Source of the DNA: Candidatus Hodarchaeota archaeon
Lineage (GTDB): Archaea > Asgardarchaeota > Lokiarchaeia > Sigyniarchaeales > SOKP01
NCBI GenBank assembly: GCA_048887225.1
Contig: JBHLJY010000026.1
Coordinates: 1 to 30,063, forward strand
Reading direction: 5' to 3'
DNA length: 30,063 nucleotides
The translations under genes were made by a program, and so were the position numbers. The notes below the pieces were generated by a model. That model had not been told where the DNA came from. It was given only the letters and a program-made list of their open reading frames with translations, and ran no database searches. Shown piece by piece: positions 12,026 through 30,063 of the stretch. Positions within the stretch are counted from its first letter, which is position 1, and each line of letters starts with the position of its first letter.

Positions 12026-12183
12026 TGCAGGGAGTGGGACTCGAACCCACGAACTCCTATGAGGCTGGATATCTCATCAGAGTATAAGTCAACGGAAATT
12101 TTATTAAGAGGATCTTGAATCCAGTTTTGAGATTTTCTTTTCCCAAAATGTCCAGCGCCGTTGACCAGCTTGGCTATCCCTGC
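12026..12183 (-). tRNA. tRNA-Leu(CAA) with two introns (12119-12149 at 32/33; 12071-12113 at 37/38)
   Basis: Removing both introns gives an 84-nt cloverleaf: GCAGGGA/TCCCTGC acceptor, CTGGA-CTCAAGA-TCCAG anticodon arm, long variable arm, GTGGG-TTCGAGT-CCCAC T-arm. Both junctions fold as BHB-type motifs. Confidence 0.92.
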
Positions 12184-12318
12184 TGCTTTAATGAATTTTA
12201 AATAATTTGTTGATCTTGGCGTATTATAATATTATATAAGTTGCAATTAAAAAAATTTATTTCTTTAAATAGGAAAAAAATATAGTAAAGTATAAGGAGT
12301 ACGAGATAAAAAATTTTT

Positions 12319-12549
12319 TTAAAACATGAAAAATATCATTATGAACATAAACAGCATCAATACAAGAAGAAACACCAACTGAATCCTTCCTTTTTTTTTC
12401 TGTTTCATCTCGTAACCAAGATATTTATCCCTACAAGCTTGACCACAAAATTTCTTATCGGGAGGTACTGCTTTACCACAAATGCTACAATGAGCATGGG
12501 GACCCCATTTTTGTTTAATTTGATCTTTCCATGAGTTTTTTTGAGACAT
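12319..12549 (-). CDS. DUF2116-family Zn-ribbon membrane protein
   Basis: PHAHCSICGKAVPPDKKFCGQAC followed by a basic stretch and a TM helix. Confidence 0.8.
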   Translation of the reverse strand: MSQKNSWKDQIKQKWGPHAHCSICGKAVPPDKKFCGQACRDKYLGYEMKQKKKGRIQLVFLLVLMLFMFIMIFFMF

Positions 12550-12623
12550 CCTATTTTATTCACACTTAAAAAATTAATAATAAGATCACTAAATATTGAA
12601 GATTAAAATATTTTTTTTGAGCC

Positions 12624-13334
12624 TTATTTATACGTTATAATTGTACCAGTTATTTTTTTCTCTCCATTCCAATAGTTATTAAAGTCGTTTAAATCTTCTC
12701 CCGACGTAATTAACACTTTGATCTTACTTCTTTTCAATATCTGCAAGGAAACGGCATCAAATATGCGGTACTCACCAGCCGCTGCTTGTTTAGCTCCAGA
12801 AGATTTTAAAATTAATTCCTGCAATTCTTCATAATTTAATTTCTCATATAATTTAGCATCTTTAAATTTATTAGGATCTTTATCATAAATGCCTTTTACA
12901 TCTGTAAGAATAAATAATTCTTCAGCATTAATATATTCCGCAACTTCAAAAGCCACAGATGTCGTAGATTGCCCTGGTTGCAAACCTCCCATGATAACAA
13001 TTTTACCAAAGAGTATGGCTGTAGAAAGCTCTTCTATTGATTTTGGGACCTCTGGATAAGCAAAATCTTGAAAAGCTGATATAATTAATTTAGAATTTAT
13101 TCGAGACAGAGCAATTCCTAATATATCACATAGTGCTTCGTTGTCATTAAAAGATCTAACAGCATCAATATAGTCTCGTGCAATTGTCCCTCCACCACAC
13201 ACAATAACATGGGTCCCGGAGTATGTCTTTCTTTTAAAAATTTTACAGAATTCAGCAATTTTTTTTGAATTTATTTTTTTATCTTCAGTAAACAATAACG
13301 AACCTCCCAGCTTTATTACACTTTTTGCTTTCAT
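12624..13334 (-). CDS. pyrH: UMP kinase
   Basis: KLGGS, VCGGGTIARDYI, MGGLQPGQSTT, TDVKGIYDKDP. Confidence 0.95.
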   Translation of the reverse strand: MKAKSVIKLGGSLLFTEDKKINSKKIAEFCKIFKRKTYSGTHVIVCGGGTIARDYIDAVRSFNDNEALCDILGIALSRINSKLIISAFQDFAYPEVPKSIEELSTAILFGKIVIMGGLQPGQSTTSVAFEVAEYINAEELFILTDVKGIYDKDPNKFKDAKLYEKLNYEELQELILKSSGAKQAAAGEYRIFDAVSLQILKRSKIKVLITSGEDLNDFNNYWNGEKKITGTIITYK

Positions 13335-13403
13335 AATATTTTCAATCTATTTTTCTTTGTATAAATATATAGTTGATTTGATAAATTAAGTTATCTAAGA
13401 TAT

Positions 13404-14366
13404 ATGTCTAAGAATATCAAAAAAGTAATTGTTGAAGTCCCCCATAGAATATCTGGCTTTTTTGAAATAGTAGATGAAATAAATGGGAAAAAGATTAAGG
13501 ATCCAGTAAAGATTGGTTCCCGAGGCGCTGGATTTTGTCTAAGTGCTGTGGGGAGAACAGAGATCTCTATTGAGGATTCTAAAAAAGATGGAGATTCGAG
13601 ATGTAGTATTAATATTAATAATGAAAAATTAAATCAGAGGGCAGAAACATCTTATTATATTTTTAATTATATTAAAAAATATTTAAAAAATCCAGTTAAA
13701 ATCCAAATTAATCATACATTTGATCTTCCAGTAGGATGTGGCTATGGAGCAAGTGGTTCTGGGGCCTTAGGTACTATATTTGGTTTGAATTATTTACTAA
13801 ATCTTAATTTATCATATGAAGAAAGAGGGAGAATCGCCCATATAGCAGAAATAGTAAACAGAACGGGATTAGGGACCGTTTGTGGGATGTTGGGCCGAGG
13901 TTTGTGTATGTTAAAGGAACCAGGATATCCATGCATTATTAAACGTATAAATGTACCTCAAGGAATCAAGATAATTTGTGGTACTTTTGGAATGATTCCT
14001 ACTAAATCTATTTTAAAATCTGAAAACCTAACTACAAAAATAAAGGAAGCGGGGAGAAAAGCATTACAGAAATTAACAAACGAAGAAAATTTATTTATGT
14101 TTACAAAAGCTTCCATAGAGTTCGTAAAGGAAACTAAAATACTTTCCAGTTTAAATTTGATTAAAACCAAAGAATTAATGGATGAACTCAATAAATTAGA
14201 TATTATTGGTGCTAGTATGAACCAATTAGGACGTTCTGTCTATGCTATTGGTAAAAAGAAAGATGTAAACAAAATGATGGGAGTTTTTGAATCATATAAA
14301 CCAGAAATTAAAATATTTCATCTCTCAATTAATAATAATTACCCAAGAATCTTAAGAGAGAAATAA
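13404..14366 (+). CDS. Pantoate kinase (GHMP family)
   Basis: PHRISGFF, GSRGAG, LPVGCGYGASG, AHIAE...TGLGTV. Confidence 0.85.
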   Translation: MSKNIKKVIVEVPHRISGFFEIVDEINGKKIKDPVKIGSRGAGFCLSAVGRTEISIEDSKKDGDSRCSININNEKLNQRAETSYYIFNYIKKYLKNPVKIQINHTFDLPVGCGYGASGSGALGTIFGLNYLLNLNLSYEERGRIAHIAEIVNRTGLGTVCGMLGRGLCMLKEPGYPCIIKRINVPQGIKIICGTFGMIPTKSILKSENLTTKIKEAGRKALQKLTNEENLFMFTKASIEFVKETKILSSLNLIKTKELMDELNKLDIIGASMNQLGRSVYAIGKKKDVNKMMGVFESYKPEIKIFHLSINNNYPRILREK

Positions 14367-14377
14367 ATTATACAATT

Positions 14378-15184
14378 TTATTTCAGTGATTTTGATTTTA
14401 AAGTTGCTGCTTCAACGGCTTTAATAAGCGTGGATCTCAATTTTCCCTTTTCTAATACATGTAGAGCTGTTATTGTAGTTCCTCCTGGAGATGTTACCAT
14501 ATCCTTTAATTTTCCAGGATGTTCATTTGTTTCTAAAACCATTTTAGCAGCACCAAAGCCAGTTTGTGCTGCTAATTTAAGAGCAATATTCCTAGGAAGG
14601 CCCATTTTTACTCCTCCATCTGCTAGTGCTTCGATTATCATGAAAAAATAAGCTGGCCCACTTCCAGATAAACCAGTAACAGCATCGATATATTTCTCAT
14701 CCAATTCAACAATTATCCCTACAGAATTCAAAATATTTTTGATATATTCTAAATCGTCTTTATTTACAATTTTGTTGTATGACATAGCAGAAGCTCCAGC
14801 ACTTACCAAAACAGGAGTATTAGGCATTACTCTAATTATTCCAGTTTGTTTGTTGAGATATTTTTCTATATGATTGATGGTAATTCCTGCTGCAATAGAT
14901 ACTATAATCTTTTGTTCGTTTACAACTGAACTAATTTCTTTTAATACTGAGTCTATTACTTGTGGTTTAACAGCAATAAGGATATATTTTGATTCTCGAG
15001 CCAATTCAATGTTATTGTTAGCAGTATCTACATTAAATTCTCGGGATCGATCGTTAAGTAGATTTTCATTTGTATCTGAAATCATGATTTTATTTTGTTC
15101 TACTATTTTCGAGTTTAAAATACCTTTAAGTAAAGCGGTACCCATATTGCCAATTCCGATAATTCCCAATTCTTTATTAGACAT
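14378..15184 (-). CDS. proC: Pyrroline-5-carboxylate reductase
   Basis: GIGNMG, AVKPQ, RVMPNTP, SGSGPAY, VTSPGGTT. Confidence 0.97.
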   Translation of the reverse strand: MSNKELGIIGIGNMGTALLKGILNSKIVEQNKIMISDTNENLLNDRSREFNVDTANNNIELARESKYILIAVKPQVIDSVLKEISSVVNEQKIIVSIAAGITINHIEKYLNKQTGIIRVMPNTPVLVSAGASAMSYNKIVNKDDLEYIKNILNSVGIIVELDEKYIDAVTGLSGSGPAYFFMIIEALADGGVKMGLPRNIALKLAAQTGFGAAKMVLETNEHPGKLKDMVTSPGGTTITALHVLEKGKLRSTLIKAVEAATLKSKSLK

Positions 15185-15246
15185 AGATTAATATCACTTT
15201 TTTATTTAAAATAAATTTTTAATTAGTCCATATTAAGTTCTTCTTT

Positions 15247-15978
15247 TTATTTATATAATTCCCTTTTTAGACTTTCTATAAGGCTCTTTTTTATCATTCC
15301 ATTATTCCTATCGAGATCTTCGCAAACAGCCCTTCTGACACCAATTATATCTGGAGAAATTTGTCTTATTTTTGGTATATCTTTTTTCATTATATTTCCA
15401 GCCAAAGCTACTCTAAGATTTAATTTATTCGCTTTTTCTTTAAATGTAATTAATTCCTCCATACTTAAAAAATCAAATATCCCTTTATCATCTTTGATAT
15501 AAGTATCAAGCATTGCAATATCAGATCCAGATTCTGCTGCAATAGCTGGAATCTCTAAAAATTTTGGTGAAGTTTTTATTCTTGAACGATCTGCATATCC
15601 AGCTGCTACAACTTTTATCTCATTATTATAATCTTTTACAGCTTTCACAACATTTCTCATTAATTTAATACCTTGATTGTCGTTTTTTGGACCTTTTAAA
15701 CCCACCTTTATTACATCAGCACCTGAAACTGCCGCTCCTAAGGCTGCTAACGATGCTGAACCAGGTAAATTAGGAAAATTTCCAATGGCGGCACTTAATA
15801 GTTGAGAGCTATTTGATGGAATTAATTCTTTCATGCGTTTTATAATCCATGGAAAATTTGCTCCTAGAGATCCTTCACTAGGATTTTTGCAATCGATATA
15901 ATCTATTTTAGAGTCGACTGCAACCTTTGCTCCTTCTATGTTTTTAGGGCTTATTAATAGTTTAATTTTATTACGCAT
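15247..15978 (-). CDS. mfnB: (5-formylfuran-3-yl)methyl phosphate synthase (methanofuran biosynthesis)
   Basis: LLISP, IDCKNPSEGSLGANFPWII, KVGL, GYAD, MLDTYIKD, LAG, GVR. Confidence 0.9.
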   Translation of the reverse strand: MRNKIKLLISPKNIEGAKVAVDSKIDYIDCKNPSEGSLGANFPWIIKRMKELIPSNSSQLLSAAIGNFPNLPGSASLAALGAAVSGADVIKVGLKGPKNDNQGIKLMRNVVKAVKDYNNEIKVVAAGYADRSRIKTSPKFLEIPAIAAESGSDIAMLDTYIKDDKGIFDFLSMEELITFKEKANKLNLRVALAGNIMKKDIPKIRQISPDIIGVRRAVCEDLDRNNGMIKKSLIESLKRELYK

Positions 15979-16250
15979 ATCTAATCATTATTAATATAAA
16001 AAAATTAAAAAACTTATTTAGCCGAAAAAGGAAACAACAATATAATTTAAAATAAGAAGAAAAATCTAATTAGAAATAACTTGAAATTATTAACGAAAAA
16101 AAATTGAAATTCAAAAAGCTTTCATTTAAAAACCTCATTGATTTAAATCGTTAAACTCGTAGCAAAATAAAATTTGAAAGAAAATTTAAAAGTAATTTAG
16201 GGTATTATAAAAATAAATATAAATAGCATTTATTTTATTATGATATTATT

Positions 16251-16781
16251 ATGTCACCAAAAGAAATTACAAAATTTCCAATCACAGAAGCTGTTTTCAA
16301 AGATCCTTTAGAAGTTATAAAAGAATTGACAGAAAAATTCGACGGTTTAAAATATACGAAAGTTATACAAACATTTGTTATGGAAGATAGAAGATTAACT
16401 TTAAATTTACAAAAATTAGGATCTACTTTTTTTAAAGGAAAAATTGTATGGATTGGAAATAAAAAAGATGGCACCGAAGGAACATTATTTTGTGTTGATA
16501 CGGGATCTGAATTAAAACAAATTAATCCAAGCCCAGAGAATACCAGTTCGGTAACATTAGAAACTAAAAAAGAAGCGATTGTAATATCTACTGTATCAAC
16601 AACTAAATGCATAGTGTGTGGAAATGATTTAGAAATTTTTCATAATATAGCTGGATGTCCCATTTGTCAAGCAAAGGCACATCGCGAACATTTGATAGAT
16701 TGGATTAATATGAAACATTCGTGTCCAACGTGTAAAAAATCTTTAAATGTGTCATCTACAGGCGTAATTATGATTGATTAA
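16251..16781 (+). CDS. RING-finger protein (putative E3 ubiquitin ligase)
   Basis: C-terminal CIVC-x12-CPIC-x4-HREH..DW...CPTC. Confidence 0.7.
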   Translation: MSPKEITKFPITEAVFKDPLEVIKELTEKFDGLKYTKVIQTFVMEDRRLTLNLQKLGSTFFKGKIVWIGNKKDGTEGTLFCVDTGSELKQINPSPENTSSVTLETKKEAIVISTVSTTKCIVCGNDLEIFHNIAGCPICQAKAHREHLIDWINMKHSCPTCKKSLNVSSTGVIMID

Positions 16782-17529
16782 TATTATTTTTTTCTTTAAA
16801 AACTTTTAAGTTATCTATACTAATCGAACCATCATATAACGCAGTAGCAATTAAAACTCCAGTGAATTTATTATTATAATAATTCAACACATCTCTAAAA
16901 TCTTTAATTCCTCCTCCAACTAATACAGCTCCTTTAAAAAATTCTCTAATTTTTAAGTAAATTGATGGGATTCCTCCTATTTTTTGCCCAACTCTAAATA
17001 AATCAAGAAGTATTAGTTCCCTTACACCAAATTTTTTTAAAGTACTAACAACTTTTATTGGATTTTGAGTTTTCAGTTCTTTTATTTTTGAAATTATGGT
17101 TCCTTTAAACATATCAACACTTACAATTAATTTGAATTCTCCAAAAATTTTTAATCCTTCGCGAATTATATCAATACTATTAATAGATTCCAAGCCTAAA
17201 ATTAATTTTTTTTGTTTGTATTTCGAATATTTTTGAAGGTCTTCCTTATCTTTAATCCCAGGATCAATTATTACATTTATTTCTGGAATTCTTAATATTT
17301 TTGATAATATTTCTAAATTCGGTCTATTCTTAATAATTGCATCTAAGTCTGCTATATAAAATTCCCTGAAATTAAATTCCCGTTTGAGAACTTTTATAAT
17401 TTCTATTGGATCTGAAGACTTTATTAATTTAGATTCTAAAGGTTTATATTTAGCCCTCTCACCTTTTATTGCATGTACTGCCTTAGAATTCAATATATCT
17501 ATTACAGGTATGATTTTAAAATTTGACAT
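16768..17529 (-). CDS. HisA/HisF-related TIM-barrel protein (C1-cofactor-linked family)
   Basis: IIPVIDI....VHA..GER..Y.P, YIADLDAI, LLDL.RVG, VGGG, ATALYDG. Confidence 0.8.
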   Translation of the reverse strand: MSNFKIIPVIDILNSKAVHAIKGERAKYKPLESKLIKSSDPIEIIKVLKREFNFREFYIADLDAIIKNRPNLEILSKILRIPEINVIIDPGIKDKEDLQKYSKYKQKKLILGLESINSIDIIREGLKIFGEFKLIVSVDMFKGTIISKIKELKTQNPIKVVSTLKKFGVRELILLDLFRVGQKIGGIPSIYLKIREFFKGAVLVGGGIKDFRDVLNYYNNKFTGVLIATALYDGSISIDNLKVFKEKNNINQS

Positions 17530-17716
17530 AATTTATAATTAAAGATTGTTAATATTGAAGATTAAATTAATAAATTTTAAAATTTCTTGATTTTAATAAT
17601 ACAATTCTATTATAATTCTATCTGCTTTTCAAGAAAAAAAATGATAAAACAAGAATACTCCTTTTTTTTAAATTGGATGGCAATTTAATTAACAAATAAC
17701 AATTTAATTTTTAAAT

Positions 17717-17771
17717 AATCATTTCTAAATTACTTTTAAAAAATCATTTCTAAATTACTTTTAAAAAATCA
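17717..17771. repeat. Perfect 25-bp tandem duplication (AATCATTTCTAAATTACTTTTAAAA x2.2)
   Basis: Units start at 17717 and 17742, with a partial third copy at 17767. Confidence 0.9.
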
Positions 17772-17799
17772 GAATATAAATAAATTAAATTTGATAAAT

Positions 17800-19515
17800 A
17801 TGACAAATGAGGCGTATATCAATAAGATTATAGAGGAAACAGGTTTAACAAGAAAGGAAATTGAAGATTTGGTTAAGGAAAAGAAAATAGATTTAAAAGG
17901 ATTGATTTCTGATGAGGGTGCTTTATTTATAATAGCAAAAGAGTTAGGCGTTGATGTTAAAGATGAAAGTAAAGAAATTTTAAAAGACATTGAAATAAAT
18001 ATTTCGGATATAACCTTAAATATGAAAAATATCGTTTTAATAGGGCGAATCAAAGAAATATATCGAATTCACGAATTTAATAAAGGCGATGGAGGAATTG
18101 GCCGTGTTGGATCCTTTTTATTGCATGACAAATCTGGAGATACTCGTGTTGTCTTATGGGACGAAAATACAAAAATCTTTGATAATCCAAATTTTGAGAC
18201 AAATGAACTTGTAAAAATTTTAAATGGAAATGCTAAAGAAGGAAGATACGGAGATATAGAAATTCATATTGGAAAATTTGGGAAAGTAATATTATCTCCT
18301 GAAGACGTTGATTATAGAAAATATCCTAAAATTAAAAGCATAATTACTCCGATAGATGTCATTAGTTTATCTCTTCCTTCTGTTTCAATAGAAGGAAAAA
18401 TAATCCAGAAAACTCCATTAAATATATTTACAAAAAAGGATGGGACACCTGGAAAGGTAAGATCCATCAATTTAATAGATTCAACTGGAACAATAAGAAT
18501 TACTTTTTGGAATGATGATACAGAAAAAATAAATGATTATGAAATTGGAGAGTTTATCTCGATTACACATCTAAATCCAAGATTAAGTAGTATTAATTCA
18601 AACACTATAGAATTATATGCCAACAAGAATTCTCTAATAAATAAAAAAGATAAAAAACTAAAAATAGAGGCTAAATTAGTTGAAAATATTAAGCTACTTC
18701 AAAATCAACGAAATATCGTTTCATTGCAAGGAATAATTAGTTCTATAGATAATCTGAAAAAAGTCTCCTTAAAATCTGGAGAGGAATTGTCATTATTATC
18801 TTTTATAGTGAGTGATGAAACAGATGGAATTAGAGTTACTTTGTGGAGAGATAAAGCCGAAGAATTTTCTGAAAAATTGACCGTTGGAGCTGGAATTCTA
18901 TTAAAAAATGTTATGGTTAAATATAGCACTTTTTCAGGTAGATGTGAAATATCTTATATAGATGATTCGTTAATTGATTTTGTTGATTTAGATATGAAGA
19001 ACATTAAGAGTATAGAATTACCGAATAAACAAATGAGATCAGATTTTACTAGAAATTATACAAGAATTAATCATATAAATTCGTCTGGCGTTTTCGAAAT
19101 AAAGGGTTTTATTGCTAAGGAACTTAATAATATCACAATTTACGAAGCTTGTTCAAATTGTTTTAAAAAAATTGATAATTGTATTTGCGATGAAAAAGGT
19201 GCACTTGAACATAGAATGATTTTTAACGTAATAATTGATGACGGGAGTGGGACAATTAGAACAACTTTTATTGGAGATAAGGCAGAAGAATTAATTGGAG
19301 AATCAACTGAAACTATTTTAATAATTAAAGAAACACCGGATTTCAATACTTTTTTGGAAAAAAAATCTGCTGAATTACTCGGAAAAGATATTATTATTAA
19401 AGGTCGGGCAAAATTTAGTGAATTTTCTAATTCTTACGAAATAATTGCTTATGATTTTCAAGAAGTTAATGTAAATGAAGAATTGGAAAAATTAATTAAA
19501 GATATACCTGTATAA
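17800..19515 (+). CDS. Replication protein A large subunit (multi-OB-fold ssDNA-binding protein with Zn finger)
   Basis: Repeated D.SG/D.TG.IR..LW OB motifs, YEACSNC...CIC, DDGSGTIR, and a helical N-terminal domain. ATG at 17800. Confidence 0.85.
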   Translation: MTNEAYINKIIEETGLTRKEIEDLVKEKKIDLKGLISDEGALFIIAKELGVDVKDESKEILKDIEINISDITLNMKNIVLIGRIKEIYRIHEFNKGDGGIGRVGSFLLHDKSGDTRVVLWDENTKIFDNPNFETNELVKILNGNAKEGRYGDIEIHIGKFGKVILSPEDVDYRKYPKIKSIITPIDVISLSLPSVSIEGKIIQKTPLNIFTKKDGTPGKVRSINLIDSTGTIRITFWNDDTEKINDYEIGEFISITHLNPRLSSINSNTIELYANKNSLINKKDKKLKIEAKLVENIKLLQNQRNIVSLQGIISSIDNLKKVSLKSGEELSLLSFIVSDETDGIRVTLWRDKAEEFSEKLTVGAGILLKNVMVKYSTFSGRCEISYIDDSLIDFVDLDMKNIKSIELPNKQMRSDFTRNYTRINHINSSGVFEIKGFIAKELNNITIYEACSNCFKKIDNCICDEKGALEHRMIFNVIIDDGSGTIRTTFIGDKAEELIGESTETILIIKETPDFNTFLEKKSAELLGKDIIIKGRAKFSEFSNSYEIIAYDFQEVNVNEELEKLIKDIPV

Positions 19516-19594
19516 ATCTAAAATTTTTATTAATAAATGATTATAGAAATTTTAAGATTTATATAAAATAATAAATATTTAAAGTCAAATTTTC

Positions 19595-20530
19595 ATGAAA
19601 AAGGTAGATATTATTGGTTTAGGAGAAGTTGTTATTGATTGGGTTGCTGAAATTCCACATTTTCCTAAGCCAGACGAAAAAATCGATGCATTAAGTGAAA
19701 ATTACTTTCCAGGGGGAGTTACTGCTAATTATTTAGTTGCTGTTGCTCGTTTAGGAGGAATTTGTGGATTTATTGGAGCTGTTGGTGATGATTCTTATGG
19801 AGATTTCTTAATTGAAGATTTTCAAAAAGAAAAAGTGGATACTATGCTAATCTTAAAAAAGAAAGGAAAGAAAACACCTGTAAATTTTATATTTGTTGCT
19901 AAAGGTGAAAAAACAATTATACAATCACCTTATATGCAAACCACGAAAATTGATGTTGATAATTTAGACAAAAGATACATAGCTGATTCAAAATTATTAC
20001 ATACTACAATGATACACCCTAAAGTTACTGAACGCGCAATAGATATAGCAAAATATAATGATGTTAGAGTAAGTATTGATTTAGAGGCTCAAATCGCTCA
20101 AAAAGGCTGGGAGAACTTAAAGAATTCTCTTTTAAAAGCTGATGTATTAATTCCGAATAAGGAAGGGGCTAAATCAATTACTAATAGTAAAACGCCAGAA
20201 AAAGCAGCTAAAATCTTAATAAAGAAAGGAATTCCGCTAGTGATTATAACTATGGGAAATCAAGGAGCATTAGTAACTACAAATCGATTCCAAAAATTAA
20301 TACCTACCTATGAGGTTGATAATATCGTTGATACAACTGGAGCAGGTGATACTTTTAATGGTGCATTTTCGATAGGTTATTGGATTAAGGAATGGGATTT
20401 AGAAAAATCTTGTAGATATGCCAATGCTGCAGCAGCATTAAAAATTCAAAAATTGGGTGCAAGAACGGGGATGCCAAACGAAAATGAATTAATTAAATTT
20501 TTAAAAAAAAATAACGATCCCTTTTTTTAA
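19595..20530 (+). CDS. PfkB-family carbohydrate kinase
   Basis: PGGVTAN, GAVGDD.YG, PN..E-type motif, DTTGAGDTF. Confidence 0.93.
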   Translation: MKKVDIIGLGEVVIDWVAEIPHFPKPDEKIDALSENYFPGGVTANYLVAVARLGGICGFIGAVGDDSYGDFLIEDFQKEKVDTMLILKKKGKKTPVNFIFVAKGEKTIIQSPYMQTTKIDVDNLDKRYIADSKLLHTTMIHPKVTERAIDIAKYNDVRVSIDLEAQIAQKGWENLKNSLLKADVLIPNKEGAKSITNSKTPEKAAKILIKKGIPLVIITMGNQGALVTTNRFQKLIPTYEVDNIVDTTGAGDTFNGAFSIGYWIKEWDLEKSCRYANAAAALKIQKLGARTGMPNENELIKFLKKNNDPFF

Positions 20531-20593
20531 TAAAAAAATTTATTTCTTTAAAACCACCAGAATAGCGATAAAATTCCTTAAGAAAAATTTATG

Positions 20594-21025
20594 TTAATTA
20601 ATCAAACAGATCTTTCTATATTCATAGGGGCTGTTAATAATTTTTTTAAATCTTTTAACTATTTTTTCAGTAGAAAGCTGATTTTGTTGCTTATTAAAAG
20701 GCCAAGTTCCAAGAAGAACATCTCCAATCCTTTTAACATTTCCAATTAAAAATCCTGTCATTTCATTTTTTAATTGAAAAAGGAGTATATAATAATAATT
20801 AAACGAAACTAAGTAAGATTCTTGACCAAAATTTATTACATCATTAATATTTTTAAAAATAACTATGTTTTTGTTTGTTTCACTTAATTTTTTTAATTCT
20901 AAAATAAATCCAGAAGGAATTTTTATGGGATCAGCAGAAAATACACTCTTAAAGGTTAAAGTTAAATTCTTTTCTTTTGTTTCGTTATTTCCTTTAAAAG
21001 TAACCTTATAAATAGTTAAACTCAT
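20594..21025 (-). CDS. Hypothetical protein
   Basis: 143-aa ATG ORF filling the gap downstream of aIF1; no motif recognised. Confidence 0.55.
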   Translation of the reverse strand: MSLTIYKVTFKGNNETKEKNLTLTFKSVFSADPIKIPSGFILELKKLSETNKNIVIFKNINDVINFGQESYLVSFNYYYILLFQLKNEMTGFLIGNVKRIGDVLLGTWPFNKQQNQLSTEKIVKRFKKIINSPYEYRKICLIN

Positions 21026-21100
21026 TGGAATTAGAATATATAACTTTAAGGGTAATGTAGTTTACAATAAAATAATTTTAAGGTTTTCCAATTTTCTTTA

Positions 21101-21418
21101 TTACTCTTGAATTAAGATATTTTCTTCGGAGAATCCCATGTCGATTAAAAATTTTTTCATTTTAAAACGATGATCTCCTTGAAGCTCAATTTCATTCCCT
21201 CTTACAGTACCCCCAGAAGCGCATTTTTTCTTTGCTTTTGTTAAGATCTCCTTTAAATTAGCATCAAAATTTCCTTGGAATGTGATAACGGTCACCACAC
21301 GCCCCCATTTACGTTTATCGTTAGAGATAATTATTTGTTGTTCGTCTGCACTTAAACTATCACAGATACATAATTCTTTTGGAAAACTACATATTGGACA
21401 GATATCTTCGTCTTTGAT
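21101..21418 (-). CDS. Translation initiation factor aIF1 (SUI1), probable ATC start
   Basis: The frame extends upstream as IKDEDICPICSFPKELCICD...KRKWGRVVTVI. C-terminal KKKCASGGT..IELQGDH. In-frame TGA at 21428-21430. Confidence 0.9.
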   Translation of the reverse strand: MKDEDICPICSFPKELCICDSLSADEQQIIISNDKRKWGRVVTVITFQGNFDANLKEILTKAKKKCASGGTVRGNEIELQGDHRFKMKKFLIDMGFSEENILIQE

Positions 21419-21653
21419 TTTGTCTTTTCACAACCTTTCTTTTAATAGTTTTTAAATTTAGTGTTTAAATTTAAAACTCAATAATAAAAAATAATATATC
21501 AACCTCTTATAAAAACCTTTCACTCTTAGATCCAGAAAAAACCTATCTCTTTCAAAATAATTTAGTGGATTATTTAAAAATTTTAATGAATTATTATAAA
21601 AATAAAATCTTATTTTATATATTTAAGAAATTGATTAATTTTAAAATTTTCCG

Positions 21654-22196
21654 GTGATTCTTATAGAAAGCTTTTGGGTTTTTAAAGTAATTATCGCTGG
21701 TGCCGGTGGAGTAGGTAAAACCGCGATGGTAACTCGTTATTGTACCGGAAAATTTGAAGAAGGATACAAAATGACAATCGGGGCGGGCTTTCATACTAAG
21801 TCTGAAACTTTAGATACAAGTGAATCTATTAAGATGCAACTCTGGGATTTTGCCGGAGAAAGAAGATTTCGTGAATTACTACCCGATTATTGTAAAGGTG
21901 CCAGTGGAGCTTTCATTTGTTTCGATATAAGTGATTATGATACATTTCGTCAAATTCCAGAATGGTTAAAAATAATTCGCCAAAAAGCTGGCTTCATCCC
22001 TATAATTCTTATGGGAATGAAATGGGATTTGTCTGATCATGAAGTTGATTTTGATATGGCAAATGATTATGCTGAAAAAGCGAAATGTAATCAATGTGTA
22101 TTCTGTTCTTCTAAAGAGAACATAAATATTATTGAATCTTTTCAAGCTATGGCAAAATGGCTTATTTATTATGCTACTCAACCTCAAGAGGAATGA
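21654..22196 (+). CDS. Rab-like small GTPase (Ras superfamily)
   Basis: G1 GAGGVGKT, G2 TIG, G3 WDFAGE, G4 variant MKWD, G5 CSSK. No C-terminal prenylation Cys. The start may be ATA 21663. Confidence 0.9.
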   Translation: MILIESFWVFKVIIAGAGGVGKTAMVTRYCTGKFEEGYKMTIGAGFHTKSETLDTSESIKMQLWDFAGERRFRELLPDYCKGASGAFICFDISDYDTFRQIPEWLKIIRQKAGFIPIILMGMKWDLSDHEVDFDMANDYAEKAKCNQCVFCSSKENINIIESFQAMAKWLIYYATQPQEE

Positions 22197-22256
22197 ATCC
22201 TCTTTTTAATAATACTTCTATTTGTTTTCAACTTAAATTAATTTAATAAGAAAGAG

Positions 22257-22453
22257 CGCCCCTGGCTATAAGAACCCCTTAGTATTTCCCATGGGGATTT
22301 CCCGCTGCAAGGAAGCCTTGCTTTGTATGGATCGAACATGCGACCGCCCGGTTAACTTCCGGAGCTACTGTGATATCCAGTAACTAAGCCGGGTGCTTTG
22401 GGCGGGCTGAGCATGTTTATGCTCAGTGCTCTACCTAACTGAGCTACAGAGGC
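22257..22453 (-). tRNA. tRNA-Asn(GTT) with three insertions (about 22398-22430 in the D-arm; 22357-22386 at 33/34; 22267-22326 in the T-stem)
   Basis: Removing 33, 30 and 60 nt gives a 74-nt cloverleaf: GCCTCTG/CAGGGGC acceptor, GCTC/GAGC D-stem, CCCGG-CTGTTAA-CCGGG, GCATG-TTCGATC-CATGC, G73. Confidence 0.85.
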
Positions 22454-22473
22454 GTGGTCTTCCGATGGATTTG

Positions 22474-22611
22474 TGCTCCCGCCGGGATTTGAACCCGGTT
22501 ATCGACTATACATCAAGAGGATAGTTGTCGGCGGGGTGAAAGCCCGCAATGCTTTCAGCAGCTCTCTCTTATGAGGCTTGGAGAACTTTGGCCGGACTAC
22601 ACTACGGGAGC
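22474..22611 (-). tRNA. tRNA-Glu(TTC) with two non-canonical introns (22554-22588 in the D-loop; 22499-22526 at the variable loop/T-stem junction)
   Basis: Removing 35 and 28 nt gives a 75-nt cloverleaf: GCTCCCG/CGGGAGC, GCGGG-CTTTCAC-CCCGC, CCGGG-TTCAAAT-CCCGG. Confidence 0.9.
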
Positions 22612-22814
22612 ATTTTTTCTTCAATTCTTAGGGGATATAATAATCTAATAAAATCTCATTTGTACAAAATCAAACTAAACTATCATATAATGTGAATTTT
22701 GTAATTCATTTTTACATTAAAATTTTTCTTTTCCTATCTCTCTATTACTTTTTTAAAGGGATACTAGATTATTTTAATTATATAAAGAGAAATAAAGTTA
22801 AAAATAAAAAAAAG

Positions 22815-22928
22815 TGCGGGAAGAGGGATTTGAACCCCCGAACTCCTACGAGACTGGATTCTAAGTCCAGCGCTTCCAACGCGCCTTTAACCAATAACGC
22901 GCCTTTAACCAAACTTGGCAATTCCCGC
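22815..22928 (-). tRNA. tRNA-Leu(TAG) with a 29-nt D-arm intron (22874-22902)
   Basis: GCGGGAA/TTCCCGC acceptor, CTGGA-CTTAGAA-TCCAG, long variable arm; 85 nt after intron removal. Confidence 0.92.
22878..22912. repeat. 17-bp direct repeat AACGCGCCTTTAACCAA (period 18) inside tRNA-Leu(TAG)
   Basis: Copies at 22878-22894 and 22896-22912. Confidence 0.95.
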
Positions 22929-23135
22929 TTATTTATTGAAAGTAATTGATGTGTTAACAAATAACATAAAATACTCAAAAATTAATAATTTTTTTATTTC
23001 ATTGTTCAAATTTATATTTGTAAAATTTTTTAGAAAATATATAAGCAATAAAATTAAAATTATTACGAATCGTTGTAAACGACACACTTATTTAATTATA
23101 ATATCCTACTATAATGAAAATTATTGGTCTTCTTA

Positions 23136-24134
23136 ATGAGCGTTAGAGAATCTTTAATAAAGCATTTGACTTCTATTTTACGAGCTTCTTCAGGAACTAT
23201 CTTAGTAATACTATGTGATCAAAATGGTCTTTCTGTTGCCAAAATAGGTAGAAAAAGTGATATAGAATTAAATCCAAATGAAATTACAAGTCTGGCGGCA
23301 GCTGCTTTTTCTGCTAGTGCAGAAAATTGGGATGATCTCCAGATAAAAGACCAAGTTATTTCATTTTCATATTTTGATAAAGTTTGTTTAATTACAATTA
23401 GAATTAATGAAACTCTTCTAACAATAGTTCATGATTATCGTAAAGAATGGCCTTTAGACGCAGATAGTTTAGCGAGTTCAATGTATTATTTAAAACGGAA
23501 CTTGGGGGAATTCTTTGGAAGTGGTGTTGTATCGGAAGCGGAACTCGAGGATTTTTCAAATAAAATTCGAAGTGCAATTTATCTTTTTGGAATGGGAACG
23601 GAAGTCCCATTTGTATCTTATACACCAGAAAATTTTGATAAAACGAACTCATTACCTTTTATAAGCATTGTTTTAGATTCAATTCAAAATCCAATATTCA
23701 TAAGGTATAGTTTAGTTGTTCCATCCGGATTAACAATCGATGCTCGAGAGGTAAGCGGCCAAGATTTACCAGTTTCAATTGAAGCTTTTTCAGCCAATGC
23801 AAACGTTGCTTTTCAAAAAATGAAAGAAGAATCAGAAGGGAGTTCTATTGGAGAATTATTATGCTATTTAGCAATTTCTGGTCAAGATCCTAATAATTTT
23901 TACGGGCTAATAACTTGTCCCGCCGGAAAATTGAAATTTTCAGAGGTAGAAGGGACATCAAATATAGAAGAGGTTTCGTTTGTGGGGTTGTTTACCTTAA
24001 CATACGGAGGAATTCCAGTTATGGGAGAATCTAGAAATATTATTTATTCAATATTAGAAATTATTGGTACTGAACAAATAACAGAGAATTTTATCAAAAC
24101 CGTTAATGTTCTTACTAGTTCTAAATATGAATAA
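23136..24134 (+). CDS. Roadblock/LC7 domain protein, probably two roadblock domains
   Basis: Domain 1: ILCDQNGLSVA...SLAAAAFSAS...L. Domain 2: LVVPSGLTID...FSANANVAF...GEL. ATG at 23136. Confidence 0.7.
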   Translation: MSVRESLIKHLTSILRASSGTILVILCDQNGLSVAKIGRKSDIELNPNEITSLAAAAFSASAENWDDLQIKDQVISFSYFDKVCLITIRINETLLTIVHDYRKEWPLDADSLASSMYYLKRNLGEFFGSGVVSEAELEDFSNKIRSAIYLFGMGTEVPFVSYTPENFDKTNSLPFISIVLDSIQNPIFIRYSLVVPSGLTIDAREVSGQDLPVSIEAFSANANVAFQKMKEESEGSSIGELLCYLAISGQDPNNFYGLITCPAGKLKFSEVEGTSNIEEVSFVGLFTLTYGGIPVMGESRNIIYSILEIIGTEQITENFIKTVNVLTSSKYE

Positions 24135-24209
24135 ATTTGCTGGATGTTTCTACTTAACTCTTTATTAAATCACGTATCTATAATAATATATGTAAGCTAA
24201 TGATTTAAT

Positions 24210-24668
24210 ATGAATAACTCGAAATCTGTAAATTCAATCCCTAAAATATATTGTTTACACTTTAAAGAATGCGATCCAAAAAAATGCACGGCTTTAAAAT
24301 TAAAAAAATTTGATATGTTGAAGTTAATTAACGAGATAAAGGGCTCTTTAAAGAAAGCATTAATATTAAATCCATTTGCTCAAAAAGAATTATCATTAGA
24401 AGATAGAAAAAGTATATTAAAATATGGTCTAATTGTATTAGATTGCTCTTGGAAGACACTCTTAAATATTAAAGATTTTAATAACGAATATGCCCGCAAA
24501 TTACCTCCTTTAATAGCTGCCAATCCTGTTAATTATGGGAAATGGGAAAAATTAACATCCGCAGAAGCTATAGCAGCTGCCCTTTATATCATTAAATTCA
24601 ATGATTATGCAAAACTAGTACTTTCAAAATTTTCTTGGGGAACTGAATTCTTCAAAATAAATTATTAA
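24210..24668 (+). CDS. tsr3: 16S/18S rRNA aminocarboxypropyltransferase Tsr3
   Basis: CDPKKCT, LDCSW, RKLPPLIAANPVNYG...LTSAEA, FSWG..F. Confidence 0.95.
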   Translation: MNNSKSVNSIPKIYCLHFKECDPKKCTALKLKKFDMLKLINEIKGSLKKALILNPFAQKELSLEDRKSILKYGLIVLDCSWKTLLNIKDFNNEYARKLPPLIAANPVNYGKWEKLTSAEAIAAALYIIKFNDYAKLVLSKFSWGTEFFKINY

Positions 24669-24697
24669 AAAAAAGAGAATAAAAAATAAAAAATATA

Positions 24698-26302
24698 TTA
24701 ATCTTCGCCACCTTTTGAAAGGCCACCCGCAGCAATTACATCATCAATTTTTATTATCATTGACGCAACTTCTGTTGCTGATTGTATTGCTTGCGTTAAA
24801 ATTAATAAAGGTTCAATGACGCCTAATTTTATCATATTATCTGGCTTTCCAGTATCAATGTTTACACCATATGATGTTCCATCTTTAGCTTCGTGTTTTG
24901 ATCTTAATTCAACAGTTAAATCTACAGGATTGTATCCAGCATTCTCTACCAGAGTTTTAGGAACAATTTCTAAAGCGTTTGCATAGATTTCTATAGCTAA
25001 TTGCTGCCTACCGCCAATTGTTCCAGCATATGTTCTTAATCGTTTTGCAAGCTCTATTTCTGAGGCTCCACCCCCTGGTAAAATGTATGGTACTTCTATT
25101 GCTGCTTTTACAACGCTAAGTGCATCATTTATCATTCTTTCCGCTTCATCGACAACATGTTCAATTCCTGCCCTAAGTAATATGCTGACTGCTTTAGGAT
25201 CGGCACACTCCGAAACAAAAATCATATTATCGTCTCCAATTTTCTTTTCTTCTACTTTACCAGCATTACCAAGATCATTGGCATTAACATCAAAAATGTT
25301 GTTAATAATTTGTGCGTTAGTTGCTCTCGCTAATTTTTCCATATCAGAACGCTTTACTCTTCGTATCGTCATTACGCCACCTTTAGCTAAGAAGTTTTGT
25401 GCCTTATCATCAATTCCTTTTTGGCAAAAAACAACATTAGCACCAATTTCTGTTAATTTAGCAACGCGATTTTTCAACATATTTGATTCTTCTTCGAGAA
25501 ATTTGTTTATTTGATCAGGTGTTTGAACTCTTATTTCCGCATCAAATTCGGTTTTTTCTACTTCTAGAGAAGAATCAATTAACGCAATTTTAGCATTTTT
25601 AATTAATTTTGGCATCATAGGATGGACTACTTCTTTGTCAACGATAATCCCATCAATAATACTAGAGTCTAAAAAACTCTTTCCTTCCTTTTTAATTATC
25701 TGAATGTGGTCAAGATCAATTATTTGATGGTCACCACGGTTTTCTTTAACTTGAGTAACAGCTTTCACAGCAATATCTGCAAAATAACCTTTTGCTCTCG
25801 CTATTAATTTGCTATTCATTGAAGTTTCAGCAATTTTAATTAGAGTTTCTATATCGTTAGTATCAATTTTAGTAGCTATTTCTTTCAAAATTTCTTTACT
25901 TTTCACAAGCGCTTTCCTATATCCTTTAAAAATAATAGTTGGATGAACAGATTGCTCCATTAATTCTTCTGCAAGATTTAATAATTCACCTGCGATTATC
26001 ACACTTGATGTAGTTCCATCTCCGACTTTTTCGTCTTGAGTTTTAGCAACTTCAATAATCATCTTTGCTGCTGGATGTTCAACATCAATAGCATCTAAAA
26101 TTGTAGCGCCATCATTTGTTATTGTTACATCTCCCAAAGAGTCAACAAGCATTTTATCCATTCCTTTCGGTCCTAATGTAGTTCTAACTGCTTCTGCGAC
26201 TGCCTTAGCCGCAGATATATTATTTTTTTGGGCATCTTTTCCTCGCTTTCTTTCGGTCCCTTCTTTTAATATGATAATGGGGACTCCTGATAACTGTGCC
26301 AT
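24698..26302 (-). CDS. Thermosome (group II chaperonin) subunit
   Basis: [36 protein letters not shown]. Confidence 0.98.
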
Positions 26303-26436
26303 ATTATAATCACTCTATCAATATTTACTAAAAAATTATATTTATATAGATCTCTAAGTCATAAAATTAAAAAAGTTTACGAAAATAAAATATTGTAAGG
26401 GCCATTTAAAATATTTTTTTTCGAGGATTTTAAAGT

Positions 26437-27921
26437 TTAAGTTTTTAATTTTTTTATCAAGTTCTCTCTTAAAGATTTAGCTTTTTCAACATTTTCGACT
26501 CTTTTTAGATACTTTTGATATAATTCGTTTTTATCTTTATTTAGGGATTGAATAAATTTGTTGACTTCATTTTTTGATGGAGATCCTTGACTTATACGCT
26601 TATCTAAGCATGTATTTAAATCTATTAACGATTCTACAAAGTTTTCGGACAAACCAATTTTCTTATTTTCGATATCTAAAATTGCCTTTTCAATATTTTT
26701 CTTTATGAGAAGATCTTGTGGATTTTTAGATTCTCTTACTAATTTCGCCACAATTTTATGAGATTGCCGAAAAGGAATGTTATACTCGTTGACCAATAAT
26801 TCTGCAAGGTCTAACGCTAATATAAAACTCTCGTTAACTGCTTTTAACATATTATCCTTATTAACTTTAATCGTAGAAAAGAGTCCTATAAGCATTTCTA
26901 TAATCGACAATAATAAATCAAAGGAATTTTTTATTAACATTTTTAATTCTTGAAAATCTCTTAAGTAGCCTGATGGAGTTGCTTTTATTATCATAGTTGC
27001 TGCAAATAAATTTGATACAATTTTTGAAGTTTTACTCCTGATAAGCTCTAATGTATCTGGATTTTTCTTTTGAGGCATAACACTTGATACCGAGCAAAAT
27101 TCGTCATCCAACTCGATAAAATCAAATTCTTTTGAAGACCAAATTAATAAATCTTCTGAGATCCTTGAAAATTGGAGTGATATTAATGATAAGCACATTA
27201 AAGTTTCAAGAATATAATCTTTGGAACTAATTGCATCTATTGAATTTTCAACTACTCCTTGAAAACCTAACAATTCTGCTGTTCTTTTTCTATCTATATT
27301 TATACTTGTACCACCTATCGCGCAGGCTCCAAGAGGATTTAAATTATTTCTATTATAAACTTCCTCTACTCGCTCCAAAGATCTTAAAATCTGAGCAACA
27401 TAATTATTTAAATAATGAGAAAATACGCCTAATTGCCCTCTTTGAAGATGTGTATAGAGAGGCATAAAAATATTTATTGCACTTTTTGATTGAGTAAGTA
27501 AAACATTAGATAGCTCAAATAGCATTTTAGACAGATCGTTTAATTCATTTCTTATTTTTAATCTAATATCAACAGATACTTGATCGTTCCTAGATCGTCC
27601 AGTATGAATTTTACCACCAACTTCAATTCCAATCTCATCAATAACACACTTTTCGATGAGTGGATGAATATCTTCAAAACTTTCGTCTAATTCGAGTTGA
27701 TTGTTTAGCAATTTATTTCTAATATTTTCAAGGGATGTTAAAATCATTTTTATTTCATTTTTATTTAATACACCCTGTTCAAATAACATGATATTGTGAA
27801 CTTCGGTCCCTATTATATCTTCTTCCGCAATCCATAAGTCTTCCTTCAATGAAGATAAAAATTTTAAGACTTTCTTATCTAGAGGTGCTTCTATTCTGGT
27901 TCTATATATATCTTTTCCCAT
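26437..27921 (-). CDS. argH: Argininosuccinate lyase
   Basis: EDIH, HTGRSRNDQV, YTHLQ, SSVMPQKKNPD. Confidence 0.96.
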   Translation of the reverse strand: MGKDIYRTRIEAPLDKKVLKFLSSLKEDLWIAEEDIIGTEVHNIMLFEQGVLNKNEIKMILTSLENIRNKLLNNQLELDESFEDIHPLIEKCVIDEIGIEVGGKIHTGRSRNDQVSVDIRLKIRNELNDLSKMLFELSNVLLTQSKSAINIFMPLYTHLQRGQLGVFSHYLNNYVAQILRSLERVEEVYNRNNLNPLGACAIGGTSINIDRKRTAELLGFQGVVENSIDAISSKDYILETLMCLSLISLQFSRISEDLLIWSSKEFDFIELDDEFCSVSSVMPQKKNPDTLELIRSKTSKIVSNLFAATMIIKATPSGYLRDFQELKMLIKNSFDLLLSIIEMLIGLFSTIKVNKDNMLKAVNESFILALDLAELLVNEYNIPFRQSHKIVAKLVRESKNPQDLLIKKNIEKAILDIENKKIGLSENFVESLIDLNTCLDKRISQGSPSKNEVNKFIQSLNKDKNELYQKYLKRVENVEKAKSLRENLIKKLKT

Positions 27922-28311
27922 CTTTCTTCAATCAAACTTAGTGATATTTTTAAATTAATTAAATATAGGATATAATGGAGATCGCTTATGAACTTTGTGT
28001 TACACTTTTTTGAATTTTAAGTATAATTTCTATTATAATTAATATTGTTTTTTATACTTATAAGAGCAAAGGTTATTAACATTTAAATTCGGGTAATAAA
28101 AGAGTAAGTCTTTTAACCTAAAGTAAAATGCTTTTTTATTTGAATTTTGTCGGATAAAAGAAGATGATTTATTATCAATCTTTAAAACGAATATTAAATA
28201 TTTTTTATTAAAGAAATTTCCAATTAATTTTAAGTAGGTCTAGGTAATTTACATAATTTACCAAGGAAAAATGAATAAATTTTAAGGAAAATATTTTTTT
28301 ATATATTAATT

Positions 28312-29520
28312 GTGACAGTTATATTTGGCATAGTTGGGAAACCTAGCAGCGGAAAATCTACTTTTTTAAACGCAGCATGCTTAACTCATGCTAAAGTTGG
28401 TGAATTGCCTTTCACTACGATTGAAGCAAATAAAGGAGTGGCATATATAAAAACTGACTGTGTTTGTAAGGAATTAAATGTTGAAGATGATCCAAAAAAT
28501 TCAATTTGTTTAGACGGGAATCGGTTTATACCAATAAATTTATTAGATGTAGCAGGTTTAGTTCCAGATGCTCATAAGGGTAAAGGATTAGGGAATAAGT
28601 TCTTAAATGATCTAAGCAGAGCTGATGTGCTCTTACATATTGTTGATATGACGGGAGCCCTTGATAAATCAGGAAATAGAGTTGCTATGGGCGAAAATGA
28701 TCCTTATGATGATGTTTTATTTTTAAGAGAGGAAATAGATTATTGGGTTAAGGATATCCTTAGCAGAGAGGACTGGGATAAATTTACAAAAATTTCAAGA
28801 GACAAAAAAAAAATAATAAAAGATTTATATAAAAGACTTTCAGGTTTAAAAATTAATCAACAACACGTCATCACAGCCTTAAAGGATTCAAACTTGGAAG
28901 ATAAGGCAGCAGCACAATGGACCGAGGATGAAAAATTAATGTTTTCAAAAACTATTAGAAAACTTTCAAAACCGATTTTGATTATCGCAAATAAAATTGA
29001 TAAAGAGATTAGTGTGAAAAATCTTGAAGAAATAAAGAAGAAATATGATGGACCGATAATACCATGTAGCGCGCTGGCAGAATATTTTTTACGAAAATAT
29101 CATGAAGAGAAAATTGTAAATTATATCCCTGGATCTACTGATTTCCAAATTATTAATAAAGATAAGTTGAGTTCTGATGAATTTGAAACATTATCCAAAA
29201 TAAAAAGTCAGATCTTAGAAAAGTTTAATGGGACGGGAGTTCAAGCATCACTAAATTATGCTAGTTTTGATATATCAAACCTTATTGCTGTTTATCCCGT
29301 TTCAGATATAAATAATTTTTCTGATAAAGATAATAATGTCCTACCTGATGTTTTTTTAGTTAAACAGGGAACATTATTAAGAGAGTTTGTTGGTGAAAAA
29401 ATTCATACTGATTTAGCTAAGCATTTTATACATGGGATTGATGCTAGAACAAAGAAGAGATTAGGAGAAAATTATGAACTGCAGCATAATGATATCGTAA
29501 AAATAGTTTCAGCTAAATGA
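28312..29520 (+). CDS. ychF: Archaeal YchF/Obg-family translation-associated NTPase with TGS domain
   Basis: GKPSSGKST, PFTTI, DVAGLVPDAH.G.GLGNKFL, NKID, IHTDL. Confidence 0.92.
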   Translation: MTVIFGIVGKPSSGKSTFLNAACLTHAKVGELPFTTIEANKGVAYIKTDCVCKELNVEDDPKNSICLDGNRFIPINLLDVAGLVPDAHKGKGLGNKFLNDLSRADVLLHIVDMTGALDKSGNRVAMGENDPYDDVLFLREEIDYWVKDILSREDWDKFTKISRDKKKIIKDLYKRLSGLKINQQHVITALKDSNLEDKAAAQWTEDEKLMFSKTIRKLSKPILIIANKIDKEISVKNLEEIKKKYDGPIIPCSALAEYFLRKYHEEKIVNYIPGSTDFQIINKDKLSSDEFETLSKIKSQILEKFNGTGVQASLNYASFDISNLIAVYPVSDINNFSDKDNNVLPDVFLVKQGTLLREFVGEKIHTDLAKHFIHGIDARTKKRLGENYELQHNDIVKIVSAK

Positions 29521-29593
29521 CGCTCATGAAAAGTATTACTCTTCTTTTGATGATAAAATAATGTAAACTAATATTATAATTATCAAGATAATT

Positions 29594-29659
29594 CCGAGAA
29601 GAATTAGTACAAAATTATAAACTTCTACTGGGTCGAATTCTGTATCTAATTCCGGTTCT
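29594..29659. other. Long imperfect inverted repeat (hairpin)
   Basis: GAATTAG-TACAAAATT (29601-29616) pairs with AATTCTGTA-T-CTAATTC (29636-29652). Flanking AGAA/TTCT and CCG/CGG extend it. Confidence 0.6.
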
Positions 29660-29813
29660 TGAAGTAAGAAAAGAACGATAAATAAAACGAAACTAAAAAA
29701 TTTCATGCTAGTATTAGAATAAGAAGAAATATTTAAAAAAATTTCTCATTTTTTATGCGTTCTTTAATTTAAGAGCTTTATAATACTTAATAATAAAAGT
29801 GGTTTATTTTAGA

Positions 29814-29914
29814 TGGACCTGACGGGAATTGAACCCGTGACCTCTTGAATGCAAGTCTTGCTTATTCATATATATGAATAATTATCAAGCGATCTTCCGC
29901 TGATCTACAGGCCC
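29814..29914 (-). tRNA. tRNA-Ala(TGC) with a 29-nt intron at 32/33 (29855-29883)
   Basis: GGGCCTG/CAGGTCC acceptor with G3:U70; CTTGA-TTTGCAT-TCAAG after splicing; BHB central helix CTTG/CAAG. Confidence 0.93.
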
Positions 29915-29986
29915 AGTTAAAAAATAGGAAGGAGAAAAAGAAGTTTAATAAGAATTCCCTAAAAAAACTTACATCTTTTTTAATAG

Positions 29987-30063
<77 letters not shown>

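Follow-up and report, generated by a model that had tools for sequence, protein, structure and literature searches.

The window analysed here is a stretch of 30,063 nucleotides (positions 1 to 30,063, forward strand, of contig JBHLJY010000026.1 in assembly GCA_048887225.1) from a Candidatus Hodarchaeota archaeon, a member of the Asgard archaea. It contains five tRNA genes, all on the minus strand: Leu-CAA, Leu-UAG, Glu-UUC, Asn-GUU and Ala-UGC. The nine inserts spread over these genes, 28–60 nt in length, lie at 32/33 (twice), 33/34, 37/38, the D-loop, the D-stem (twice), 48/49 and 63/64, eight of the nine being non-canonical positions. Dense non-canonical introns are characteristic of Thermoproteales and of ARMAN-type archaea. 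We consider it very probable that the five loci are functional tRNA genes and that all nine inserts are introns of the archaeal bulge-helix-bulge (BHB) type, which are spliced by proteins.

Nine inserts in five tRNA genes

Standard annotation misses these genes, as an earlier, sequence-only reading of the window had expected. ARAGORN in default mode detected none of the five in the window and its intron mode recovered only two, one of them mislabelled as Ile-UAU; the Rfam tRNA model at its gathering score matched a single gene (22815–22900, minus strand), with the acceptor stem misaligned. Additional tRNA-like loci were indicated by weak covariance-model matches and by perfect T-arm motifs, four of which occur in the window against 0.1 expected by chance. 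Read on the minus strand, all five genes possess acceptor, D, anticodon and T elements with inserts between them, and once the nine inserts are taken out ARAGORN folds five out of five into standard cloverleaves, each having U33 in an anticodon loop of 7 nt. The claim of the sequence-only reading that all five tRNAs in the window are interrupted, by nine insertions in total, is borne out by these cloverleaves, as are the positions that it gave; it named eight places, the ninth being the first Asn insert. Exons are colinear in all five genes, each locus spanning 101–197 bp, and no split or permuted gene was seen among them.

Introns were called by scoring candidate cut-site pairs for BHB geometry (4 central pairs, 3-nt bulges, outer and inner helices), taking candidate introns out iteratively and asking whether ARAGORN then returned a tRNA; a strict BHB scan alone gave mostly noise. 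The tRNA-Asn gene could not be solved by this BHB-first procedure, and its model was settled by eye and by comparison with relatives. BHB motifs, strict or relaxed, are present at seven of the nine introns: one strict hBHBh', four HBh' (4 central pairs, inner helices of 6–8 bp) and two weaker relaxed motifs.

The tRNA-Leu(CAA) gene (12026–12183; this and all other window tRNA coordinates are on the minus strand) is a class II gene, 84 nt when spliced, which then folds as a cloverleaf. It carries a 31-nt intron at 32/33 (12119–12149) with a relaxed HBh' motif of 4 central pairs and an 8-bp inner helix, and a 43-nt intron at the canonical 37/38 site (12071–12113) with the strict hBHBh' motif; both intron sites are kept in the orthologues of genomes G002 and G012. 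In the class II tRNA-Leu(UAG) gene (22815–22928), where the Rfam match misses the true 5' acceptor strand, located upstream of it, a 29-nt intron (22874–22902) interrupts the 3' strand of the D-stem at about position 23/24, with an HBh' motif of 4 central pairs and a 6-bp inner helix. An intronless Leu(CAG) paralogue aligns to both exons of this gene and skips the insert.

The tRNA-Glu(UUC) gene (22474–22611, 75 nt spliced) has a 35-nt D-loop intron (22554–22588; HBh', 4 central pairs, 7-bp inner helix) and a 28-nt intron at 48/49, the junction of variable loop and T-stem (22499–22526), with one of the two weaker motifs (3 central pairs, 5-bp inner helix). Three introns interrupt the tRNA-Asn(GUU) gene (22257–22453), for which a spliced form of 74 nt is supported both by its cloverleaf and by the relatives. 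The first of these (33 nt, 22398–22430), between the 3' strand of the D-stem and position 26/27, has a weak BHB-like motif and a placement that slides by 4 nt; the second (30 nt, 22357–22386), at 33/34, shows an HBh' motif with 4 central pairs and an 8-bp inner helix; the third (60 nt, 22267–22326), at 63/64 in the 3' strand of the T-stem, shows no clear BHB under strict geometry. Finally, the tRNA-Ala(UGC) gene (29814–29914), which has the G3:U70 pair, starts 73 nt downstream of the 3' end of a 16S rRNA gene and contains a 29-nt intron at 32/33 (29855–29883), whose hBH-like motif of 4 central and 2 outer pairs is the other weaker one.

Comparison with related genomes

We searched 40 related genomes and obtained orthologues from nine genomes of the same genus and several of the same family. 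The Leu-Glu-Asn tRNA cluster is found in same-genus and same-family genomes, and so are orthologues of the Leu-CAA and Ala genes. Across these relatives the exons scarcely vary, whereas an intron may have another sequence, length or position, or be missing. The Asn gene of the congener G004 is free of the first intron, which fixes the mature Asn sequence there independently, and has a canonical 37/38 intron in place of the one at 33/34. The Asn T-arm intron lies in the T-loop rather than at 63/64 in G005 and G007, and some relatives have a shorter 63/64 intron. The Glu-UUC gene of G007 is intronless and 75 nt long, the same mature form as ours and an independent confirmation of it; in G004 the same gene has only a D-loop intron, of 30 nt and at the same site, the 48/49 intron being absent from both genomes. 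A 33-nt intron of unrelated sequence occupies the Leu-UAG site in congeners. A split at 32/33 is likewise required for Ala in congeners; in G006, by contrast, the anticodon arm is uninterrupted and the intron is in the D-arm. Such within-genus differences (Asn 33/34 versus 37/38, T-loop versus T-stem, Ala anticodon loop versus D-arm) make a compact data set on the speed of intron turnover.

The Asn 33/34 introns could be aligned across ten genomes. Their 4-bp central helix is invariant, and five of the eight inner-helix pairs have changed on both sides; 88% of all cells are paired, against 23–40% in a control with the partner strand slid. Because the exons are conserved, the inserts vary and this helix carries compensatory changes, the inserts are, on comparative sequence grounds, best taken as real, evolving introns and not as assembly artefacts or the products of pseudogene decay.

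The same data bear on whether the loci could be pseudogenes in decay that have taken up random insertions, while functional copies are situated elsewhere in the genome or in unassembled DNA. The failure of standard finders at these loci would agree with decay, and an assembly in which the 23S rRNA gene was not found anywhere, and some isoacceptors are missing, leaves room for unseen copies. Decay would not, however, be expected to leave conserved exons that fold perfectly after splicing, nor the same interrupted genes in independent assemblies with compensatory changes in their introns. Moreover, in the assembly, estimated to be 98% complete, no intact duplicate of any of the five genes and no second gene for their anticodons was found, and Ala-UGC follows the 16S gene, as is usual for it. 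We therefore regard pseudogenes as an extremely improbable explanation.

Genome-wide census of tRNA genes

The census of the whole genome gave 41 tRNA genes, 16 of them uninterrupted (39%) and 25 interrupted (61%), so that the interruption of every tRNA gene, as seen in the window (5 of 5), does not extend to the whole genome. The interrupted genes comprise the five in the window, 11 others that were mapped (the model for Val-CAC is poor) and nine read by eye or only partly resolved, namely Pro-GGG, Leu-GAG, Thr-CGU, Thr-UGU, the initiator Met, Asp-GUC, Leu-UAA, a Gln-like gene and a gene with anticodon UAU or UAA. Approximately 36 introns are distributed over the 41 genes, or 0.88 per gene, and a canonical intron is the sole intron in four genes. 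The sequence-only reading would have been contradicted by a genome that is otherwise mostly intronless or that holds intact duplicates; instead, 20 of the 36 genes outside the window are interrupted. Given this genome-wide interruption, five interrupted genes would be drawn from the pool with a chance of about 0.07, which makes the window a sample from a genome rich in introns, and neither a hotspot nor a special locus.

Some points weigh against functional, spliced genes. The first and third Asn introns, two of the nine, have no convincing BHB under strict geometry, and for all nine introns splicing is predicted from sequence. The census is incomplete, since five or six isoacceptors that would be expected did not turn up in scans anchored on the T-arm and D-arm or when the mature tRNAs were compared with the genome by BLAST; the sole addition from the anchor scans was Asp-GUC, and the BLAST searches gave no additional loci. 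For Ala a canonical-looking alternative cut exists, with 3 central and 5 outer pairs. With that cut the G3:U70 body would be given the anticodon AUU together with A33, and we set it aside for functional and comparative reasons alone, because such an anticodon is nonsensical and because congeners require the 32/33 split.

Other candidates were discarded in the course of the census. A scan of GC islands for hidden tRNAs returned 1338 islands and was far too noisy, and three candidate loci (C1:249384, C7:8997 and C46:3861, C numbers denoting contigs of the assembly) were dropped as apparent false positives in AT-rich or coding sequence.

The census also allowed us to weigh two further explanations for the abundance of introns. 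An anti-integration role of introns is reportedly a published hypothesis for intron-rich archaea, and the sequence-only reading had likewise invoked a block to virus integration. In this view introns would be maintained by selection for breaking up tRNA genes as attachment (att) sites of viruses and other mobile elements. The genome encodes only three integrase homologues (tyrosine recombinases), two of them on contigs without a detected tRNA gene (C24 and C25) and the third on C7, about 117 kb from the one, dubious, tRNA call on that contig; none lies in the window. With no association between these three homologues and tRNA genes, the proposed block to virus integration found no support. Protection of att sites also has to contend with the 39% of tRNA genes that are still uninterrupted and with the absence of mobile-element enrichment near gained introns in a recent survey (Goswami 2026 preprint, doi 10.64898/2026.10.13.758758), and we think it quite unlikely.

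The second explanation is that the introns transpose, as in Thermoproteales, where related sequences occur in different tRNA types. Most introns here are near 30 nt and share the same hairpin-type HBh' architecture, which would suit transposition. Yet an all-against-all comparison of 21 introns of the genome yielded only chance matches of 7–9 nt and no significant similarity, in agreement with the earlier remark that no two insertions are alike, and cross-tRNA intron families amount to 1.5% in Asgard archaea against 28% in Thermoproteales (Goswami 2026 preprint). Transposing introns are in our view very unlikely.

The splicing machinery

Two paralogues of the splicing endonuclease EndA, of 201 amino acids each, are encoded on contigs C1 (186656–187261) and C3, both open reading frames matching PF01974 and PF02778, with an N-terminal and a catalytic-type C-terminal domain in each. 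The C1 protein (α) keeps the Tyr-His-Lys triad, aligned to that of the Aeropyrum pernix α subunit 3P1Z_B, which is also its best match among solved structures (E = 5e-35), and its K-P-R aligns to K44-P45-R46 of the A. pernix Crenarchaea-specific loop (CSL/L1). The C3 protein (β) has Ser at the catalytic His position of Methanocaldococcus jannaschii EndA, as expected of a structural β subunit. The closest Atlas cluster of EndA is most common in Promethearchaeota; this and the Ras-family GTPase next to the tRNA cluster (described below) make an Asgard affiliation very probable. The CSL confers broad substrate specificity on A. pernix EndA, in which Lys44 is the RNA recognition site (Hirata 2011, PMC3241643), and (αβ)2 EndA with the L1 loop has been reported throughout Asgard archaea (Kaneta et al. 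2018). Judged from its two subunit sequences, the endonuclease is predicted to be of the two-subunit (αβ)2 form with a CSL/L1 loop, and not of the ε2 form of ARMAN; a broad substrate range is likewise predicted, from the loop. The sequence-only reading had pointed to a broad-specificity endonuclease of the Thermoproteales or ARMAN kind, and of these it is the crenarchaeal type that matches.

In the mechanism that we favour, the precursor would fold so that each exon-intron boundary lies in a bulge beside a 4-bp helix, supported in most cases by a hairpin within the intron, as in the relaxed HBh' form. The heterotetrameric (αβ)2 endonuclease would cut both bulges, its crenarchaeal-type loop tolerating relaxed motifs at any position, and RtcB, a ligase that is encoded in the genome, would join the exons after cleavage. 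The introns are a genome- and lineage-wide trait of this Asgard group with quick turnover between species, and the simplest view would be that they are tolerated insertions which persist wherever the endonuclease still removes them, accumulation then being presumably neutral.

The rtcB gene itself, which lies outside the window on contig C13 (33313–34649, plus strand), is broken by a 29-nt insert at 33458–33486. This insert has a good BHB motif, in which a 9-bp inner helix accompanies 4 central and 2 outer pairs, and removal of the insert rejoins ...GGVGY|DINCG... in frame; therefore the ligase mRNA, going by this motif, seems to need tRNA-type splicing.

Exon copies inside introns

Within the Leu-UAG intron, the spliced exon junction is repeated perfectly over 14 nt, or over 18 nt if one mismatch is allowed. 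The resulting 18-nt direct repeat (window 22874–22912, minus strand) is such that the intron repeats the end of exon 1 and the start of exon 2. Copies of 13–14 nt of the adjacent exon are also found in inserts of two genes on contig C4 (915–1050 and 46936–47119), and for each of them none of 100 shuffles was better. As a general test across 21 introns of the genome, the search for exon copies was negative for 20, so that duplication is at most a minority route of intron origin. The route by which introns arrive was left open in the Goswami 2026 preprint, where tandem or local duplication is not mentioned. It is conceivable, though rather unlikely, that some Asgard tRNA introns arise by local tandem duplication of host tRNA gene sequence.

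The two C4 genes have further features. The one at 915–1050 (plus strand) has a Gln-type 5' half and two or more inserts, and an internal repeat of 14 nt covers its anticodon region. The one at 46936–47119 (minus strand) has about three introns, and the choice of cut site decides whether its anticodon is UAU or UAA. TiaS is the agmatidine synthetase for tRNA-Ile2; a search for its PF08489 domain found none in the genome (estimated 98% complete), whereas four of four archaeal controls have it. Taken together with the possible UAU anticodon at this locus, this suggests that AUA may be read by tRNA-Ile(UAU).

Neighbouring genes

A gene for a Ras-family small GTPase with a eukaryote-like signature (21654–22196, plus strand; Pfam Ras 2e-38, Roc 9e-28) adjoins the tRNA cluster, and a neighbouring open reading frame (23124–24134) has a weak roadblock-like (MAPKK1_Int) match. 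At the window end, Rfam matches an archaeal 16S rRNA over its final 76 nt. The 3' end of this rRNA is followed, 73 nt on, by tRNA-Ala(UGC) (29814–30063 for the two together, minus strand) and then by a gene for a YchF/Obg-like GTPase (28312–29520, plus strand), not by 23S rRNA.

Comparison with known systems

The sequence-only reading had proposed a lineage-wide intron expansion in an Asgard archaeon, and the interruptions are indeed shared, with variation, by same-genus and same-family genomes. Such introns have been described in Asgard archaea before (Kaneta 2018; Valentin-Alvarado 2024; Goswami 2026), and the proposal is therefore correct but not new. The genome joins the intron-rich archaea, as by extension do its genus and its family, and the overall picture is unchanged. 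As default tools under-annotate such tRNA sets, intron-aware methods are needed for assessing tRNA complement, codon usage and completeness.

In Thermoproteales, as described by papers that cite Sugahara 2008 and Fujishima 2010, some 70% of tRNA genes are interrupted, with non-canonical and multiple introns, relaxed BHB motifs and an (αβ)2 EndA with a specificity loop, all of which resembles the present case. According to the same papers, Thermoproteales also have families of intron sequences across tRNA types, read as transposition, whereas there are none among the 21 introns compared here. The EndA of A. pernix (PDB 3P1Z) is alike in its triad, in the Lys and Arg of its loop and in having a separate β subunit that lacks the His. 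It differs in that the level of identity is that of a distant orthologue and that the best match of our β subunit is a subunit of the M. jannaschii homotetramer, assembly and activity being predicted only in our case. The ε2 EndA of ARMAN-2 and the disrupted tRNAs of DPANN archaea likewise combine a broad-specificity endonuclease (predicted here) with non-canonical introns, but that enzyme is a fused three-unit protein, in contrast to the two separate subunits of 201 amino acids found here.

The closest parallels are other Asgard archaea. In Atabeyarchaeia and Freyarchaeia, 92–95% of tRNA genes have introns, often non-canonical and multiple (Valentin-Alvarado et al. 2024, PMC11291895). In their survey of 90 Asgard genomes, Goswami et al. 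found that D-arm introns are frequent and escape tRNAscan-SE, that introns have been gained repeatedly and that BHB motifs are enriched, with no copying between tRNAs, no link to mobile elements and a widespread (αβ)2 EndA. Published Asgard tRNA introns are thus like those of the window in that several of the BHB type may occur per gene, at non-canonical sites in the D-arm, anticodon stem and loop, variable region and T-arm, and also in being missed by standard annotation, repeatedly gained and lost, free of cross-tRNA families and accompanied by (αβ)2 EndA. The intron burden of our genome (about 0.9 per gene, 61% of genes) differs from that of Atabeyarchaeia and Freyarchaeia (92–97% of genes, 2.2 per gene) and fits the 0.91 intervening sequences per gene which the preprint gives for its other, non-focal Asgard families.

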